Positions 3,330-39,424 of a stretch of 64,000 nucleotides of DNA are shown here, piece after piece (within the stretch, counting starts at the first letter, position 1; the number at the start of each line of letters is the position of its first letter). The notes under the pieces were generated by a model that saw nothing but the letters and a program-made list of their open reading frames with translations, was not told where the DNA came from and did not search any database. The DNA comes from an uncultured Nitrososphaerales archaeon (lineage in GTDB: Archaea > Thermoproteota > Nitrososphaeria > Conexivisphaerales > DTJL01): assembly GCA_964475215.1 (NCBI GenBank), contig CAYYVT010000187.1:3506-67505 (forward strand). Direction: 5' to 3'. Made by a program: the position numbers and the translations under genes.

Positions 3330-5477
3330 TTACAGCTTAAGCAGTATCCTAGCGTCCAGCGCTTTGCATCCCTTCCCGTCTTCAAAGACCACGAATGGGT
3401 TGACGTCCAGCTCGTTGACCCTCTGAAGTTCAACGGCCATCTGTGAAAGCCTTTCGAGATATTCTATCAGCTTGTCGGTGTCACCTTTCTTGGCCCCTCT
3501 GAATCCGGCAAGGAGTTGGCTTGCCTTCGTTGAATTGATCATGTTCTGGGCCCCCAGTTCTCTAATGGGGGCAAGTCGAAAGGATACGTCCTTGTAGAGC
3601 TCCACTGCGGTGCCCCCCGTGCCGAATACGATGATGGGGCCGAATTGAGGGTCCCTCCTCATGCCGAGGAGTGTCTCTATACCCTTCCCGGCCATCGCGT
3701 AGACTCCTACCCCCCAGATGTCAGCCTTGGGGCAGTTTGTCTTGACTGAGGTAATGATGTCTTCGTAGGCGTGCCGTAATCCGTCAGGATCTTGGACTCC
3801 GACCTTGACCCCGCCTACATCGGTCTTGTGGACGATGTCGGGCGAGACGACCTTCAGGACGACTGGGTATCCTATTCTCTGTGCCTTCTCAAGCGCGTCT
3901 TCGAGGTTCCTGCCAAGGGCATGTTTAGGAACGTCGAATCTGTATGCTTCAAGCACGTCATATGCCTCTAGGTCGGTCATCACTTCCCTCCTCTCTTTAA
4001 TCACCTCGTTGATGATTCTCTCTGCCTTCGCCCTGTCGACGTCTCGAAACGTCCTCACCTCGGTCCTACGGCGAAGGACCCAGCTTTCGTATCTCTGCAT
4101 CATGGCGAGGGCCCTCACCGCGGACTCGGAGAACTCGTAGACTGGGACCTTGTTATCTTCGTTGTTTTCTAGGAGGACTACCCCTTCATCGTCAGCTGGA
4201 GCACCGGGGAACGAAGCCATTACCGTCTTTTCGGTCTTGCCGGCTGCCTTAGCTATGGCTCTTGCGATGGCCTTGGTGTCCGTCATCAGCTGCCTGGTGG
4301 CTATGATGATGAGAGAATCTACGTTGGGTTCCTTGACCATGGCCTGGATGGTCCTTTCATAGCGAACTTCGTCAGCATCTCCGATCATGTCAACAGGGTT
4401 GTTCAGGGCAGCAGCCGGAGGGAGGAAGGATTTTAGCAACGAAATTGTTTCAGGTGATAACGCGGGTATGGACATGCCGTACCTTATGCATGCATCGGTC
4501 GTTAGGATGCCAGGGCCGCCCGCATTGGTGACTATTCCCACCCTGTTGCTCTTAGGGATAGGTTGCCTTGCAAAGGCTATCGCATAATCAAAGAGCTCAG
4601 CGGTGAATTCGACTCGCAGGACGCCACTTTGCAGGAAGATAGCGTCGTACACCTCGTCAGAGCCCGTCAGTGATCCCGTGTGAGAAGAGGCAGCCTTGGC
4701 GCCAGCTGCCGTGCGTCCTGCCTTTAGAGCCAATATGGGTTTTCCGATGGTGTCCGTCACAGTCCTTGCAGTCTCAATGAAACCCCGACCGTCCACGAGG
4801 TCCTCTAGGTAGAGCAGAATCACCTTCGTGAGGGGATCGTTGGCCAACGCCTTCAGGAGGTCCAGCTCGTTGAGCACTGCCTTGTTTCCCAAGCTTACGA
4901 CCTTGGATATGCCTATGTTGCGTGACGAAGCGTAATCCATCAGCGACACGCCTAGGGCGCCGCTTTGTGAAACGATGGCTATGTTGCCTGACCTAGGGAT
5001 TCGTTTAGCGAAAGTCGCATTCAGCTGAACCTTCGGGTCCATGTTGCCAAGCCCTAGGCAGTTAGGACCGATTAATGGGAGATCGTAGGATTTGGCTGCT
5101 TGTTTCACAGCTTCTTCGAGCTTAGCGCCCTCGGCACCTGTTTCCTTGAAGCCAGCGCTTATTACGACCACGCCCTTGACGCCCTTCTTCCCACATTCAA
5201 TAACGGATTGCGGGACTAGCTTGCTGGGGATGCAAACGACCACCAAGTCAACGGGGTCGGGTATGTCCAAGATAGATGGATATGCCCGTACTCCAAGGAT
5301 GGAATGGGCAGTCAGGCTGACCGGATATACAACTCCTTTGAAGGTAGCCTTCAGGATGTTGGAGAAGACTGCGTAGCCTACGCTCTCCACCTTGGGAGAC
5401 GCGCCAACCACGGCTACGGAAGTAGGGCTCATAAAGGCACCAAGCCGCTTGAAGGCGTCATCAAGGGTTGTCGACAT
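3330..5477 (-). CDS. acetyl-CoA synthetase (ADP-forming), fused alpha/beta subunits (acetate-CoA ligase, NDP-forming)
   Basis: 715 aa. N-terminal CoA-binding/succinyl-CoA-synthetase-like part (VAVVGASPK...GPNCLG...SQSGA...HTGSLTG) and a C-terminal ATP-grasp part. Confidence 0.85.
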   Translation of the reverse strand: MSTTLDDAFKRLGAFMSPTSVAVVGASPKVESVGYAVFSNILKATFKGVVYPVSLTAHSILGVRAYPSILDIPDPVDLVVVCIPSKLVPQSVIECGKKGVKGVVVISAGFKETGAEGAKLEEAVKQAAKSYDLPLIGPNCLGLGNMDPKVQLNATFAKRIPRSGNIAIVSQSGALGVSLMDYASSRNIGISKVVSLGNKAVLNELDLLKALANDPLTKVILLYLEDLVDGRGFIETARTVTDTIGKPILALKAGRTAAGAKAASSHTGSLTGSDEVYDAIFLQSGVLRVEFTAELFDYAIAFARQPIPKSNRVGIVTNAGGPGILTTDACIRYGMSIPALSPETISLLKSFLPPAAALNNPVDMIGDADEVRYERTIQAMVKEPNVDSLIIIATRQLMTDTKAIARAIAKAAGKTEKTVMASFPGAPADDEGVVLLENNEDNKVPVYEFSESAVRALAMMQRYESWVLRRRTEVRTFRDVDRAKAERIINEVIKERREVMTDLEAYDVLEAYRFDVPKHALGRNLEDALEKAQRIGYPVVLKVVSPDIVHKTDVGGVKVGVQDPDGLRHAYEDIITSVKTNCPKADIWGVGVYAMAGKGIETLLGMRRDPQFGPIIVFGTGGTAVELYKDVSFRLAPIRELGAQNMINSTKASQLLAGFRGAKKGDTDKLIEYLERLSQMAVELQRVNELDVNPFVVFEDGKGCKALDARILLKL

Positions 5478-5582
5478 CTTCAGCCCTCCATGCCCCTCAC
5501 GCGTCGTGTGGCTTTAACCGTAACCGTCGAGACGGGGTGTAAGGTAAATATACCGTCAGTATGTAGGGACGTCTGCCGGGAG

Positions 5583-5711
5583 GCCGGGATTCAGCGTCAG
5601 GCCCGACAGCTCAGCCTGGTTAGAGCGCCAGCCTCCATCGAAGGCGATACTCATAATCTGGAGGTGGACGCGTGCCACCAGAAGTCGAGGGTTCGAAACC
5701 CTCTCCCGGCA
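5583..5711 (+). tRNA. tRNA-Met/Ile2(CAU) interrupted by three introns (5591-5607, 5632-5648, 5664-5683)
   Basis: Acceptor GCCGGGA (5583-5589) pairs with UCCCGGC (5704-5710). D arm is GCUC-AGCCUGGUUA-GAGC, anticodon loop CUCAUAA, T arm GAGGG-UUCGAAA-CCCUC. Removing the three segments gives a canonical 75-nt cloverleaf, and each junction lies in a bulge-helix-bulge with a perfect 4-bp central helix (details in findings). Confidence 0.75.
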
Positions 5712-5785
5712 CCTCCCTACTTCTGATGTGTTTGCAGTTGTAAGCTTTAATAATTGTAGAGGTCGAGGGAGATGTTGCTTGATAT

Positions 5786-5896
5786 ATGTCCCCAGCTGAT
5801 TTCTTCTCGTTTGCAGGGACGATGACGTTTGCTATCTTGGTGGCGGCCGTCATAGCCCTATTCATCTACGAGCATTACGCCGCGAAGAAGAAGTAA
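5786..5896 (+). CDS. possible 36-aa single-pass membrane mini-protein
   Basis: ATG ORF MSPADFFSFAGTMTFAILVAAVIALFIYEHYAAKKKK, a hydrophobic helix plus a basic tail, in otherwise empty intergenic space. Too short for the ORF track. Supported by sequence appearance only. Confidence 0.25.
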   Translation: MSPADFFSFAGTMTFAILVAAVIALFIYEHYAAKKK

Positions 5897-5907
5897 GACA
5901 CTGATCA

Positions 5908-8619
5908 ATGTTGGCGATGGCCGCCGATCAAGCTTTTCATATCCTCCTTTCTAGGGCAGGAATAAGCACCCCTACTCCGATTCAGAAAAAGGCTTGGCCC
6001 GTGGTGGTCAGACGAAAGAATTCCCTCATTTCAGCGCCGACCGGCTCGGGGAAGACCGAAGCCGCTATGTTCCCCGTGCTGGTGACCCTAGCTGCCACTG
6101 GAAGAACTGGAGGAATTCGAGCGATTTACATAACCCCGTTGAGGGCCCTGAACCGTGATCTTCTGGTTAGGCTGACTGAATACACAGAATCGGTCGGGCT
6201 AAAGGTGGCAGTCAGGCATGGCGACTCCTCCGAATCGGCTAGACGGAAGAGCCTAGTTAACCCTCCAGACCTTTTGATAACGACGCCAGAGACGCTGGGA
6301 ATCCTGTTATCCTCCAGAAAATTCAAGGAGAACCTGAAATCCGTAGAGTGGGTCGTGGTGGACGAAGTCCATGAGCTCGTGAACAACAAGAGAGGTGCCC
6401 ACTTGGCTCTCAGCCTCGAGCGTCTCTGTGAACTTGCTCAGAAGACCCCCGTCAGGATTGGAATTTCCGCTACAGTTGGAGACCTCAACCAAGCGGCTAG
6501 GTTTATAGTCGGCAGTCGGGGGGATTATTCCATAATAACGGATCCCGTGCCAAGGGAATATGATATACAGCCAATTCTGCTCAACGGGGATCTCAGGGCA
6601 GTTGCGAATTACATCGTGAGAGACGTAGCCGAGAAGGATTATGGTACGGTTCTGGTCTTCGCCAATACTAGGGACGAAGTCGAAATAATCGCCGCTCTCA
6701 TCAAGGAAAAGGGTGAACCCGGTGTCGGCGTTCATCATGGATCGCTCTCGAAAGAGATAAGGGAGGAGGCGGAAAGCCTTCTGAAGACAGGGAAGCTCAG
6801 GATCGTCGTAGCGACTTCTTCGCTCGAACTAGGGTTGGATATCGGAGACATCGCTAACGTCTATCAGGTCAACTCGCCGAGGCAAGTCGTGAAGCTCGCT
6901 CAACGAATAGGGAGGAGCTTTCATGAGGTCGGACACAGAGCCCAGGGGACCATCCTATGCACCGACGCTGACAACTACGTTGAGAGTCTGGCTTTGGTTA
7001 AGCGTCTAAAGGAAGGTAGCATCGAGAGGGTCGGGCCCTTGACTCAGCCTCTTGATGTCTTGGCCCACCAAGTAGTCGGTACCACCATCGAGAGATGGAA
7101 GCTTTCAAGTGTCGACTTCCTGACCATGGTAAGGCGAGCATATCAATACGAGGACTTGGACGACAAGACCTTCGAAGATGTTACGACGATTCTGTCGGGT
7201 AATTACCTGATTTGGAGGGATGGAGAAATCATCAAGGGACGCGGGAAGAAGACGTACGAGTTCTATTTCTCAAACGTATCAATGATTCCTGAGGTGGAAA
7301 ATTATGATGTAGTAGAACTCCTGAGCAGGAAGAGGGTGGGTTCGCTGGATGAGAAGTTCGTAGCGGAGAACGTAGAGCAGAGCCAATCAATCATACTCCG
7401 CGGCGAACCTTGGCATGTCGTCTCGATTGATGATCATGAGGCAAGAGTGTTTGTCGAACGGACTAAGACGATGGCGGGAGCCATCCCAATATGGTCGGGC
7501 GAAATGATTCCCGTCGAACGGGAGACCGCAGAGATGGTCGGGGAGATGAGGAGACAGGCCCCAGGAGAGGATGATGACCTGCGAAAGTACTGTGACGGGA
7601 TTACGAGAGAGCTGGGCATGGTCCCAAGTCCGAGCAACATTGTGATTGAAGTAGGAAGAGGAGGTGCTGTGATACATTCCTGCTTTGGAACCAGGATAAA
7701 CAGCACGCTAGAGAAGGTGGTCTCCGCAATGATTAGGGGATTATTTGGCGGCATGCCACAATCGATGAGCGATCCTTACAGGATTCTGATTGTAAGTCAG
7801 CCTTCCATCAGCGGAGAGAGGTTGAAAGAGCTCATCTTGCAGGTGAAGGACTTGGAGGCCGTTGCCATCCCGGAGATTACTTCTTACAGGGTGTTTCAGT
7901 ACACGATATGGCAGGTCGCCAAGCGGTTTGGCCTATTGGATAGAACGGCCAAGTACGATAGAAGGGCCGCGAAGGTGATAATGGAGAGATATATCCACAC
8001 TCCGGTCTACATCGAAGCCCTCAACGAAGTCCTGCAGAGGAAGTATGATTTCGAGGGAACAAGGGACATCCTGAGTCGTGTGCAAGACGGCCGGATTGGA
8101 ATGAATGTAATTGAGGTTGAGCGTTACTCGTCGTTGGCCTCAAGAATTGTGGATGATGCGATCGACCGCGGCGTTGAAGGCCCAGAGAGGGCCGTTGAAA
8201 AGCTGAAGGAGAGGTTAAGCGTGCGCCATGTAAAGCTGGTTTGCCTCACGTGCGGCCGGTGGAGCAGTGTCGTAAAGGCCTTCGAGGCTCCAGACCGTTT
8301 AAGATGCAAGATTTGCGGATCCAAGATGATAGCCATAACTTCACCTTATGATACGATGACGGAGAAGGTCGCGGAGAAGAAGGCGAAGAAGAAACCGCTG
8401 GCTGATGAAGAAGACAAACGGTTTAGGAAGGCTTGGAAGGCGGCGGCCCTAGGTATCTCCTTCGGACGAAAGGCGGCGATTGCGATGTCCTGCTATGGAG
8501 TGGGGGAAGATACGGCCGCACGAATCCTGCGGCAATCCGCTACCGAGGAGGATATGTTCTTGAACCTCTACTATGCGGAAAGGAACTTCCTCCTGTATCG
8601 CCAATACTGGGACAGCTAG
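5908..8619 (+). CDS. lhr: Lhr-type large ATP-dependent DEAD/DEAH-box helicase
   Basis: 903 aa. Motif I APTGSGKTEAA; motif II VVVDEVHELVNNKRGAHLALSLERL, typical of the Lhr core; C-terminal Cys4 ribbon (CLTCGRW...CKICGSK). Confidence 0.8.
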   Translation: MLAMAADQAFHILLSRAGISTPTPIQKKAWPVVVRRKNSLISAPTGSGKTEAAMFPVLVTLAATGRTGGIRAIYITPLRALNRDLLVRLTEYTESVGLKVAVRHGDSSESARRKSLVNPPDLLITTPETLGILLSSRKFKENLKSVEWVVVDEVHELVNNKRGAHLALSLERLCELAQKTPVRIGISATVGDLNQAARFIVGSRGDYSIITDPVPREYDIQPILLNGDLRAVANYIVRDVAEKDYGTVLVFANTRDEVEIIAALIKEKGEPGVGVHHGSLSKEIREEAESLLKTGKLRIVVATSSLELGLDIGDIANVYQVNSPRQVVKLAQRIGRSFHEVGHRAQGTILCTDADNYVESLALVKRLKEGSIERVGPLTQPLDVLAHQVVGTTIERWKLSSVDFLTMVRRAYQYEDLDDKTFEDVTTILSGNYLIWRDGEIIKGRGKKTYEFYFSNVSMIPEVENYDVVELLSRKRVGSLDEKFVAENVEQSQSIILRGEPWHVVSIDDHEARVFVERTKTMAGAIPIWSGEMIPVERETAEMVGEMRRQAPGEDDDLRKYCDGITRELGMVPSPSNIVIEVGRGGAVIHSCFGTRINSTLEKVVSAMIRGLFGGMPQSMSDPYRILIVSQPSISGERLKELILQVKDLEAVAIPEITSYRVFQYTIWQVAKRFGLLDRTAKYDRRAAKVIMERYIHTPVYIEALNEVLQRKYDFEGTRDILSRVQDGRIGMNVIEVERYSSLASRIVDDAIDRGVEGPERAVEKLKERLSVRHVKLVCLTCGRWSSVVKAFEAPDRLRCKICGSKMIAITSPYDTMTEKVAEKKAKKKPLADEEDKRFRKAWKAAALGISFGRKAAIAMSCYGVGEDTAARILRQSATEEDMFLNLYYAERNFLLYRQYWDS

Positions 8620-27130: not shown

Positions 27131-27259
27131 TGCGGGGGGTGGGATTCGAACCCACGAAGGCCTACGCCAGCAGATCTTGAGTTTGGGCTTACGGACGTCG
27201 TTTCTGCCCCCTTTTGTCGCCCAATTCGAGAGGCTTTGGCCTGGCTCGGGGACCCCCGC
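27131..27259 (-). tRNA. tRNA-Leu(CAA), class II, with two introns (about 27212-27234 in the D arm; 27183-27203 at 30/31)
   Basis: The reverse complement has the same acceptor and T arm as tRNA-Leu(CAG). Removing 23 nt and 21 nt yields GCGGGGG UC CCC GAGCCAGGCCAAA GGG G GCAGA CUCAAGA UCUGC UGGCGUAGGCCUUC GUGGG UUCGAAU CCCAC CCCCCGC A (85 nt). The second intron has a perfect BHB; the boundaries of the first are uncertain. Confidence 0.7.
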
Positions 27260-31821: not shown

Positions 31822-31891
31822 AGGGCGGAGCTACCTCGGTCGAAATTCTTAAAAACTCCCGTTGAGTCGTGGCTTCAAGAGCCCCGTGAGT

Positions 31892-32001
31892 GCCCCGGTA
31901 CCTCACTGCCTGAGGCTGGAGAGCATAGCGGTCTAATGCGCTTCCTTGGTAAGCCTAACCCAAAGAGGAAGAGACCGCGGGTTCAAATCCCGCCCGGGGC
32001 T
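31892..32001 (+). tRNA. tRNA-Thr(GGU) with two introns (about 31901-31922 at 9/10; canonical 31952-31965 at 37/38)
   Basis: GCCCCGG UA [22 nt] GCAU AGCGGUCUA AUGC G CUUCC UUGGUA [14 nt] A GGAAG AGACC GCGGG UUCAAAU CCCGC CCGGGGC U. The canonical intron has a textbook BHB: UUGG/CCAA helix with UAA and AGA bulges. Confidence 0.8.
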
Positions 32002-38540: not shown

Positions 38541-38605
38541 CCTCTTCCGCAAACACTTATCTTCATGCTGCATCTGAGCAGCCGCAAGAGTGCTTCACTC
38601 CGTTG

Positions 38606-38681
38606 GGGGCCGTGGGCTAGCCTGGTCTACGCTACCAGCCTTGGGCGCTGGTGATCGGCGGTTCAAATCCGCCCGGCCCCA
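38606..38681 (+). tRNA. tRNA-Pro(UGG), intronless
   Basis: GGGGCCG/CGGCCCC acceptor, anticodon arm CCAGC CUUGGGC GCUGG, T arm GGCGG UUCAAAU CCGCC, discriminator A. No encoded CCA. Confidence 0.88.
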
Positions 38682-39424
38682 CTTCCTTTCTTCGGAAATA
38701 GAACTTCTGATGCCCTCCCTCTTGCGACCCTGTGTAACTCTAGATCCATCATCTCGAAATCATATCGATTAATGTCAAGTCGGTTAAGGAACGGAGCAAT
38801 GGTCATCGGAGGGCCTGGTTGGTAGCCAGCTCGAGAAGCATACCGGTTGAAATGTGGGAGGAACACAATCTCTCTTGGTCGCCCTCTTTTCCTATTCATG
38901 AGCTTCAACCAAACAGGTGCCCAGCCGCCGTCAAGCATAAGTTGGGGGTGTAGATGACCGGAGACAACACCATCGTATGATTCAATCGATTGCGACAGCC
39001 TAGGCAGGGAATGACCGTGGATGAAGGCGACCCGATCTAGTTCGAGCCCCTCCTTCCCAATTACTCTGACCCTAGGATCCATCACCTCCTCCACTCCATA
39101 ATCATGGTTGCCTTTCATAATCCACACTTCGAACGTCTTAACAAGCTCTTCAGTCATGGCCCGCAGGGCCTTCTTCTCGTATGGGCTGGGCTCAAAGAGC
39201 CCGTGTTTGATATCTCCAAGCACTATAAGGTTATTTGCTCCCGTTTCGCTGCTGGCAGTGGTCAGGCGAGCGCAATCCTCTAATGCTTCTTCTTCCGGGA
39301 GCGGCCTCCTAATGCCCAACCTATCGGTCAGGCCTAGGTGGACGTCGCCAATCACTAGGAAAAGCCTGCCGTCGTCGGCGAAGGCACTCAGAATCGCATC
39401 TCCCTTCAGAGGTTTCAGTTTCAA
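38663..39424 (-). CDS. calcineurin-like metallophosphoesterase
   Basis: Motifs VIGDVHLG, VLGDIKHG, KGNHD, IHGHS, SGHLHP. Its last 19 nt overlap tRNA-Pro on the opposite strand. Confidence 0.8.
   Translation of the reverse strand: MKLKPLKGDAILSAFADDGRLFLVIGDVHLGLTDRLGIRRPLPEEEALEDCARLTTASSETGANNLIVLGDIKHGLFEPSPYEKKALRAMTEELVKTFEVWIMKGNHDYGVEEVMDPRVRVIGKEGLELDRVAFIHGHSLPRLSQSIESYDGVVSGHLHPQLMLDGGWAPVWLKLMNRKRGRPREIVFLPHFNRYASRAGYQPGPPMTIAPFLNRLDINRYDFEMMDLELHRVARGRASEVLFPKKGSGAGRI

Follow-up and report, generated by a model that had tools for sequence, protein, structure and literature searches.

The window analyzed here is a stretch of 64,000 nucleotides of genomic DNA (contig CAYYVT010000187.1) from an uncultured archaeon, and all positions are counted from its first letter. 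On the forward strand, positions 5583-5711 very probably constitute a functional tRNA(CAU) gene interrupted by three bulge-helix-bulge (BHB) introns at tRNA positions 8/9, 30/31, and 45/46, to judge from the sequence and its comparison with relatives. The original prediction had placed two acceptor halves, three intron borders, and a 75-nt tRNA(CAU) at this locus. We compared every coordinate and string of that description with the sequence, and all of them matched, base for base.

The gene is composed of four exons, all on the forward strand. Exon 1 (5583-5590) encodes tRNA nt 1-8, GCCGGGAT, and is followed by intron 1 (17 nt, 5591-5607) at position 8/9. Exon 2 (5608-5631) encodes nt 9-30, comprising the D arm and the 5' part of the anticodon stem, and intron 2 (17 nt, 5632-5648) lies at position 30/31. 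Exon 3 (5649-5663) encodes nt 31-45 and contains the anticodon loop CTCATAA, with the anticodon CAT at 5651-5653. Intron 3 (20 nt, 5664-5683), at position 45/46, precedes exon 4 (5684-5711), which encodes nt 46-73 with the T arm, the 3' acceptor strand, and the discriminator A73, and in which no CCA is encoded. The acceptor halves are GCCGGGA (5583-5589) and TCCCGGC (5704-5710). Deletion of the three introns leaves the 75-mer GCCGGGATAGCTCAGCCTGGTTAGAGCGCCAGACTCATAATCTGGAGGTCGAGGGTTCGAAACCCTCTCCCGGCA, which ARAGORN folds as tRNA-Met(cat) with a canonical cloverleaf of 7/4/5/5 bp. The conserved tRNA nucleotides U8, A14, G18G19, and U33, the T loop GTTCGAA, and the discriminator are all present in the spliced product, whose predicted exon junctions (marked by a slash) read ...GCCGGGAU/AGCUC..., ...GCCAG/ACUCAU..., and ...CUGGAG/GUCGAG....

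In the canonical archaeal BHB motif, four exon bases located 5' of the first bulge pair with four intron bases located 5' of the second bulge, and cleavage occurs after the second nucleotide of each 3-nt bulge. We found this geometry at each of the three junctions, as had been claimed, with four of four central pairs every time. For intron 1, CGGG (5585-5588) pairs with CCCG (5602-5605) between the bulges ATT and ACA; the inner helix is a single base pair, and the outer helix has 3 bp, formed by G1, C2, and the leader base G-1 with G10, C11, and U12. For intron 2, CGCC (5626-5629) pairs with GGCG (5643-5646), the bulges are AGC and ATA, and a 3-bp outer helix GAG/CTC (5623-5625 with 5650-5652) is present with no inner helix. 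For intron 3, CTGG (5658-5661) pairs with CCAG (5678-5681), the bulges are AGG and AAG, and a 3-bp inner helix TGG/CCA (5665-5667 with 5675-5677) is present with no outer helix. Introns 1, 2, and 3 are, in this order, relaxed hBH, hBH, and HBh' motifs.

When the introns were shuffled, a complete central helix in the exact register was obtained at frequencies of 0.045, 0.0036, and 0.037 for introns 1, 2, and 3, or 6e-6 jointly. Homology to genes devoid of the intron permits a single placement of the junctions of introns 1 and 2, at the very sites where the BHB motifs would be cut. For intron 3, the sequence allows two placements 1 nt apart (45/46 or 46/47), between which the BHB rule decides. 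The same cleavage register is found in the textbook 37/38 intron of the tRNA-Thr(GGU) gene of the window (UUGG/CCAA), which agrees with the original prediction. Across the phylum, among the matches listed, 55 of the 57 distinct 30/31 introns scored have all four pairs in register, and the other two have three of four.

Intron distribution among relatives and decoding identity

For the comparative analysis, we scanned the GTDB species genomes with a tRNA pattern, which gave at least 119 loci, and the intron frequencies reported below describe a sample, not a census of these genomes. A second pattern, GCCGGGRT N{8,30} AGCTCAGCSKGG, was run against metagenomes and returned 120 loci, mostly chance matches in GC-rich bacterial genes; the useful loci were only L126, L140, L175, L186, L197, and L205. 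Two public contigs (JGI 3300018088 and one from ENA) were 99.98% identical to the window and carry an identical neighboring gene for ADP-forming acetyl-CoA synthetase. Other loci are syntenic with the window along their full 3.6-12 kb at 68-75% nucleotide identity. They comprise L041 (uncultured Nitrososphaerota archaeon MFD01476.bin.2.93), L073 (Conexivisphaerales archaeon isolate SPRUCE 7), and the metagenome contigs L140 and L175, with L041, L073, and L140 at 72-75%. The valyl-tRNA synthetase (ValRS) of the window shares 59-61% identity with the enzymes from Conexivisphaera calida and from a Conexivisphaerales metagenome-assembled genome (MAG). By synteny and ValRS identity, the organism is assigned to an uncultured Conexivisphaerales-related Nitrososphaerota of soil and peat metagenomes, not to the Thermoproteales.

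We aligned the four syntenic lineages (the window, L041, L140, and L073/L175; alignment A1). In this alignment, 75 of the 75 exon positions were invariant, although the flanks were only 72-75% identical. The promoter, the leader, and every BHB strand and bulge were likewise invariant, and the substitutions and indels were confined to the three intron loops.

The full-gene pattern was then counted in 59 distinct genes among the matches listed, a scope that applies to all gene counts in this section. The 30/31 intron was the only intron in 50 of them, including that of a thermophilic hot-spring Conexivisphaera sp. (L111). All three introns were present in four genes, which form the clade of the window. 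Two genes had the 8/9 and 30/31 introns (L025 and L126), one had the 30/31 and 45/46 introns (L039), and two had no intron (L078 and L095). Outside this pattern, two Bathyarchaeia genes were found, one with the 30/31 and 45/46 introns (L117) and one with the 45/46 intron only (L101). Wherever an intron is missing, the gene is contiguous exactly at the predicted junction (L078, L095, L111, L039, L117, L101, L025, and L126); the 8/9 intron is precisely absent from L039, L117, L078, L095, and about 50 others. The 30/31 intron occurs in 57 of the 59 genes, across the Nitrososphaerota, and its central helix covaries, being UGCC/GGCA in 45 genes and CGCC/GGCG in 10, a change from U-A to C-G. In an alignment of 18 distinct 30/31 junction types (A2), 98.4% of the cells were paired, against 29-51% when the partner was slid. 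Position 45/46 holds unrelated intron sequences in L039, L117, and L101, and the inner helix at this position is built from unrelated sequences in different lineages. The comparison of sequences indicates that the 30/31 intron is ancient in Nitrososphaerota and that the 8/9 and 45/46 introns are patchy additions. The series gives a dated picture of intron gain, in which the 30/31 intron is phylum-wide and the peat clade added the other two.

Other intron combinations were also observed. One Met(CAU) gene (L205; minus strand, starting about 237 bases into the reverse complement) has 8/9, 30/31, and T-loop insertions, a different set of three. In the metagenome contigs L186 and L197, a tRNA with at least three insertions was seen, including insertions at 8/9 and in the T loop.

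The archaeal initiator tRNA-Met is characterized by A1:U72 and by an anticodon stem with three G:C pairs in succession (29-31:39-41). The present gene has G1:C72, and its anticodon stem reads C27 C28 A29 G30 A31 / U39 C40 U41 G42 G43. The initiator tRNA was excluded because of G1:C72 and because there is no G:C triplet in this stem (CCAGA/TCTGG). Between the two remaining CAU identities, we consider elongator tRNA-Met the probable one, by comparison with archaeal acceptor stems. The alternative is tRNA-Ile2(CAU), in which C34 would be modified to agmatidine to read AUA; the gene structure would be the same and only the decoding identity would differ. The anticodon CAU and A73 are common to both, and an ARAGORN scan of 119 loci found no tRNA-Ile or second CAU gene for comparison in the window or the retrieved loci. 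In the literature found, TiaS is described as contacting both the anticodon stem-loop and the acceptor arm, and no determinants are listed. The acceptor stem GCCGGGA/TCCCGGC resembles archaeal elongator Met and not the GGGCC type of Ile, and about 100 Nitrosopumilaceae genomes each gave this gene type. Neither point is decisive. On balance, an Ile2 identity seems rather unlikely.

It could also be proposed that the locus is a decaying tRNA pseudogene with three insertions that are never spliced. Standard finders reject it, and public gene callers have placed hypothetical open reading frames (ORFs) over it. Against this, the exons are 100% identical where the flanking genes are 72-75% identical, the promoter is invariant, the insertions are in perfect BHB register, and one of them is conserved phylum-wide with covariation. 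Because of this conservation, the precise junctions, and the covariation, the sequence comparison excludes a pseudogene or chance resemblance for practical purposes, and we regard decay as very improbable. The reading of the locus as a three-intron tRNA(CAU) gene was upheld by the cloverleaf, the BHB register, the precise absence of introns in homologues, the invariant exons, and the helix covariation.

Several points weigh against the reading of a spliced three-intron tRNA-Met gene. Intron 3 is devoid of an outer helix and introns 1 and 2 of a real inner helix, and all three would need a broad-specificity enzyme because these flanking helices are missing. The nearest-neighbor model itself does not predict the BHB of intron 1 (probability at most 0.008), and the minimum-free-energy fold puts the freed 5' strand in other pairings; in our judgment, such modeling neither supports nor refutes BHB formation at this intron. 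Genes for the endonuclease and the ligase, like the remaining tRNA genes, would lie outside the 64-kb window, in which five neighboring ORFs were scanned. Finally, the assignment to Met presupposes that archaeal tRNA-Ile genes start with GGGCC and elongator Met genes with GCCGGG or GCCCGG.

Promoter, leader element, and proposed processing

Upstream of the gene, a BRE (B recognition element)/TATA-like promoter, AAGGTAAATATAC (5541-5553, forward strand), is invariant in the four lineages of A1. Its TATA box, TAAATATA (5545-5552, forward strand), ends 22 nt before G5575. As a control, three uninterrupted tRNA genes of the window have 27 nt from the end of the TATA box to +1, and because of this spacing the transcription start is placed about 22-23 nt past the TATA box. 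Transcription would begin about 22 nt downstream of the box, at or beside G5575, and would produce an 8-nt leader.

This leader is a near-copy of the 5' acceptor strand GCCGGGAT. The element, here called the decoy, has the sequence GCCGGGAG (5575-5582, forward strand), lies directly upstream of +1 at the predicted transcription start, and is complementary to the 3' acceptor strand CTCCCGGC (5703-5710). It is invariant in A1. Among the matches listed, a copy was found in every Met(CAU) gene with an 8/9 intron (the window, L041, L073, L140, L175, L126, L025, and L205). Its spacing varies, from -8 in the clade of the window to -14 in L126 and -11 in L025 (GTCGGGA, with one G.U pair), and in L205 it lies four bases upstream of the real start. 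In the same set of matches, none of the 78 Met homologues lacking the 8/9 intron had a decoy matching at 7/7, and two of them matched at 6/7.

As a control metric, we used the longest Watson-Crick duplex that a leader of 30 nt can form with nt 65-73. Its median was 3 in 163 control genes, of which only two reached 7 or more, one of them an ascertainment artefact; the genes with an 8/9 intron gave 9, 7, 7, 7, and 5. The tRNA-Thr(GGU) gene of the window, which belongs to an unrelated tRNA family, also has a decoy, AGCCCCG (31880-31886), capable of pairing with nt 67-73. Five syntenic relatives (L242-L246), whose ValRS identity goes down to 68%, retain this element as (A/G)GCC(C/U)CG(G). In these relatives, the spacer of 3-5 nt is freely variable, and the TATA box is found 24-25 nt upstream each time. 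All decoy substitutions seen (C to U or A to G, each of which gives a G.U pair) retain pairing. Intron-less comparators for Thr(GGU) were sought in L247-L250, including Conexivisphaera calida, and these had no tRNA downstream of ValRS.

The folding of the decoy was judged on constrained and unconstrained RNAfold runs. With the natural leader, the decoy helix had a probability of about 1.0 in Met and of 0.2-0.6 in Thr. Mutation or removal of the decoy let the real acceptor stem form at about 1.0.

In the proposed mechanism, the 4-nt strand of each intron would pair with exon bases upstream of the 5' splice site, namely tRNA nt 3-6, 25-28, and 40-43, and the resulting precursor would contain three relaxed BHB motifs with 3-nt bulges. 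Because the central helices borrow these bases, the acceptor, D, and anticodon stems cannot coexist with the BHBs, and each of the two halves of the anticodon stem would be held by its own intron (2 and 3). The decoy would pair with the 3' acceptor strand and out-compete the real acceptor stem until splicing is done. The real 5' strand would thereby be freed, and its nt 3-6 would form the BHB of intron 1, whose outer helix the decoy may extend by coaxial stacking. An (alpha-beta)2 heterotetrameric endonuclease would cut after the second bulge nucleotide on each side, and an RtcB-type ligase would join the exons. After ligation, the real acceptor stem would form, RNase P would take off the 8-nt leader with the decoy, the 3' end would be trimmed by RNase Z, and CCA would be added. 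The enzymes, the order of events, and expression are inferred. The alpha2beta2 endonucleases of Thaumarchaeota accept hBH and HBh' motifs (PMC4090602), and an enzyme of this type accepts relaxed motifs at any position (PMC4090602, PMC4033280).

Whether the decoy acts in this way is less certain than the gene itself. A tRNA shared by L186 and L197 has an 8/9 intron with no decoy, which argues against a link between the two. So does the thaumarchaeal Met(CAU) gene of L034 (minus strand, at about 2067), which has the 30/31 intron only and in which the leader CCGGGGG is complementary over 7 bp to the 3' acceptor end; this leader is either a decoy with no 8/9 intron, a relic, or chance. Additionally, the Met lineages are not phylogenetically independent, and the failure of the folding model to predict the BHB of intron 1 also limits the proposal. 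We found no description of such a leader element in the literature searched, in which the coverage of key papers was incomplete. We tentatively suggest that the decoy may be a functional, previously undescribed cis-acting folding switch in archaeal tRNA splicing, a possibility that we hold to be the less probable one. It is the part of the present locus that could be new. If functional, it would show how a BHB can arise despite competition from an acceptor stem of very high stability.

The upstream copy GCCGGGAG (5575-5582) might instead be the true or an alternative exon 1, spliced to A5608 by the same intronic CCCG with a 25-nt intron that would include the downstream copy, and, read by eye, it allows an equally good BHB (CGGG/CCCG, bulges AGG/ACA, 2-bp inner helix); however, its product would carry G8 in place of the near-universal U8. 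In the Thr(GGU) family and in L126, L025, and L205, moreover, the upstream copy never has U8 and is often mismatched at 7:66, whereas U8 always follows the downstream copy, which matches its acceptor partner perfectly in every case, so that this reading is hardly credible.

Two further conserved strings flank the gene, for which the downstream copy is taken as exon 1. GTAGGGA (5563-5569), which follows the TATA box and precedes the predicted start, does not vary among the four lineages and may be a promoter-proximal element. A leader/trailer helix of GTAGGGA with TCCCTAC (5714-5720) was considered and is probably irrelevant, as GTAGGGA lies upstream of the predicted start and L073 does not retain the complement. 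Downstream of the tRNA, GTTGTAAGCTTTAAT (5737-5751) is also invariant in the four lineages and is probably the BRE/TATA promoter of the following gene for an Lhr-type helicase (5908-8619).

Relation to known multi-intron tRNA genes

Up to three introns per tRNA gene have been reported, mostly in Pyrobaculum and Thermofilum (PMC3218864, PMC4033280). The statement of the original prediction that three-intron tRNAs are known mainly from Thermoproteales holds for these documented cases; the present lineage, however, belongs to the Conexivisphaerales and Nitrososphaerota. Like the three-intron tRNAs of Thermoproteales (Sugahara et al. 2007/2008, summarized in PMC4033280, PMC3218864, and PMC8450103), the gene described here has short BHB introns at non-canonical positions and relaxed hBH/HBh' motifs, would depend on an (alpha-beta)2 enzyme, and is missed by simple finders. 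Unlike the hyperthermophilic Thermoproteales (Crenarchaeota), the host is a Conexivisphaerales-related Nitrososphaerota of peat and soil, and one of its three introns (30/31) is old and phylum-wide, not a recent transposition.

Multiple non-canonical introns have also been documented in Thaumarchaeota (PMC8450103), including Cenarchaeum and Nitrosopumilus, which belong to the same phylum. The 30/31 intron of the same tRNA was found in about 50 distinct Nitrosopumilaceae and Nitrososphaerales genes among the matches listed, with the bulges AG/N and A N/A (slashes marking the cuts) and the outer helix GAG/CTC. Those thaumarchaeal genes have one intron of 18-42 nt, whereas the lineage of the window adds the 8/9 and 45/46 introns and has the 30/31 intron shortened to 17 nt.

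In split and permuted tRNAs (Nanoarchaeum, Caldivirga, Thermofilum; PMC3218864, PMC4090602), flanking leader and trailer sequences are selected to pair so that the endonuclease substrate forms, which resembles the situation proposed for the decoy. Here, in contrast, the gene is contiguous, and the leader element forms no BHB itself; it is a second copy of the 5' acceptor strand, and its predicted partner is the 3' strand. Eukaryotic elongator tRNA-Met and tRNA-Cys genes (PMC4090602) and tRNA-Ile(UAU) of Cyanidioschyzon merolae (PMC9602550) likewise have three BHB-type introns at ectopic sites (the D, anticodon, and T/variable regions). The intron positions and enzymes of these nuclear or nucleomorph genes differ from those considered here.

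Three-intron archaeal tRNA genes are already known, and such intron density is unreported for the present lineage and habitat; no link between Conexivisphaera and tRNA introns was found in the literature searched. The locus extends three-intron tRNA genes beyond the hyperthermophilic Thermoproteales to mesophilic soil and peat Nitrososphaerota related to Conexivisphaera.

Detection by gene finders and other tRNA genes of the window

We submitted the unspliced locus to ARAGORN, with and without the intron option, and no tRNA was called. The Rfam tRNA model gave no match on it at the gathering threshold, and a permissive Rfam search scored 5601-5711 at 20.4 bits, below the gathering score of 29. 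The expectation that standard finders would miss the gene is therefore correct for ARAGORN and Rfam; tRNAscan-SE 2.0, however, was built for exactly such cases, with a Thaumarchaeota-specific BHB model and iterations for two or three introns (PMC8450103). In public gene calls, the tRNA locus is overlaid by hypothetical proteins of 81 aa and 36 aa that have no Pfam hit. The overlying ORFs and gene calls are 5620-5865 (reverse strand) and 5304-5726 (forward strand) in the window, 2613-2858 in L002, and 2582-2692 in L001. The split gene is evidently unrecognized by public gene-calling pipelines. Because ARAGORN and Rfam miss such genes and spurious ORFs overlay them, the MAGs of this clade would seem short of essential tRNAs.

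Among the other tRNA genes of the window, ARAGORN reported a "tmRNA*" at 38589-39094 (forward strand) that overlaps tRNA-Pro(UGG) at 38606-38682. Rfam found no tmRNA at 38589-39094 on this strand, and the call is almost certainly false in an archaeon.

The tRNA-Thr(GGU) gene (31892-32001, forward strand) has two introns, one of 22 nt at 8/9 (31900-31921) and one of 14 nt at the canonical position 37/38 (31952-31965). The original prediction had cited this gene for a single textbook intron; that intron obeys the register, but the second one at 8/9 went unmentioned. The 8/9 intron has three of four central pairs, a 4-bp outer helix, and a 5-bp inner helix, and Rfam sees only model positions 9-63 of this gene.

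The window also contains a 129-nt tRNA-Leu(CAA) gene (27131-27259, reverse strand) that neither ARAGORN nor Rfam detects. This gene agrees fully with tRNA-Leu(CAG) at 2166-2250 in the T arm and the acceptor stem, and it has a clean 21-nt intron at 30/31 (GGGC/GCCC, four of four pairs). In its D arm, about 23 nt more are inserted, for which ARAGORN accepts too many alternative deletions for the borders to be fixed. We saw no sign of similar intron sequences common to the tRNAs of the window, as far as can be said without a systematic search. In total, three of the seven tRNA genes in the 64-kb window are multi-intron genes, with about seven introns (three in Met, two in Thr(GGU), and about two in Leu(CAA)). 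This makes the lineage intron-rich and comparable with the Thermoproteales, for which 0.84 introns per tRNA gene are reported (PMC8450103).

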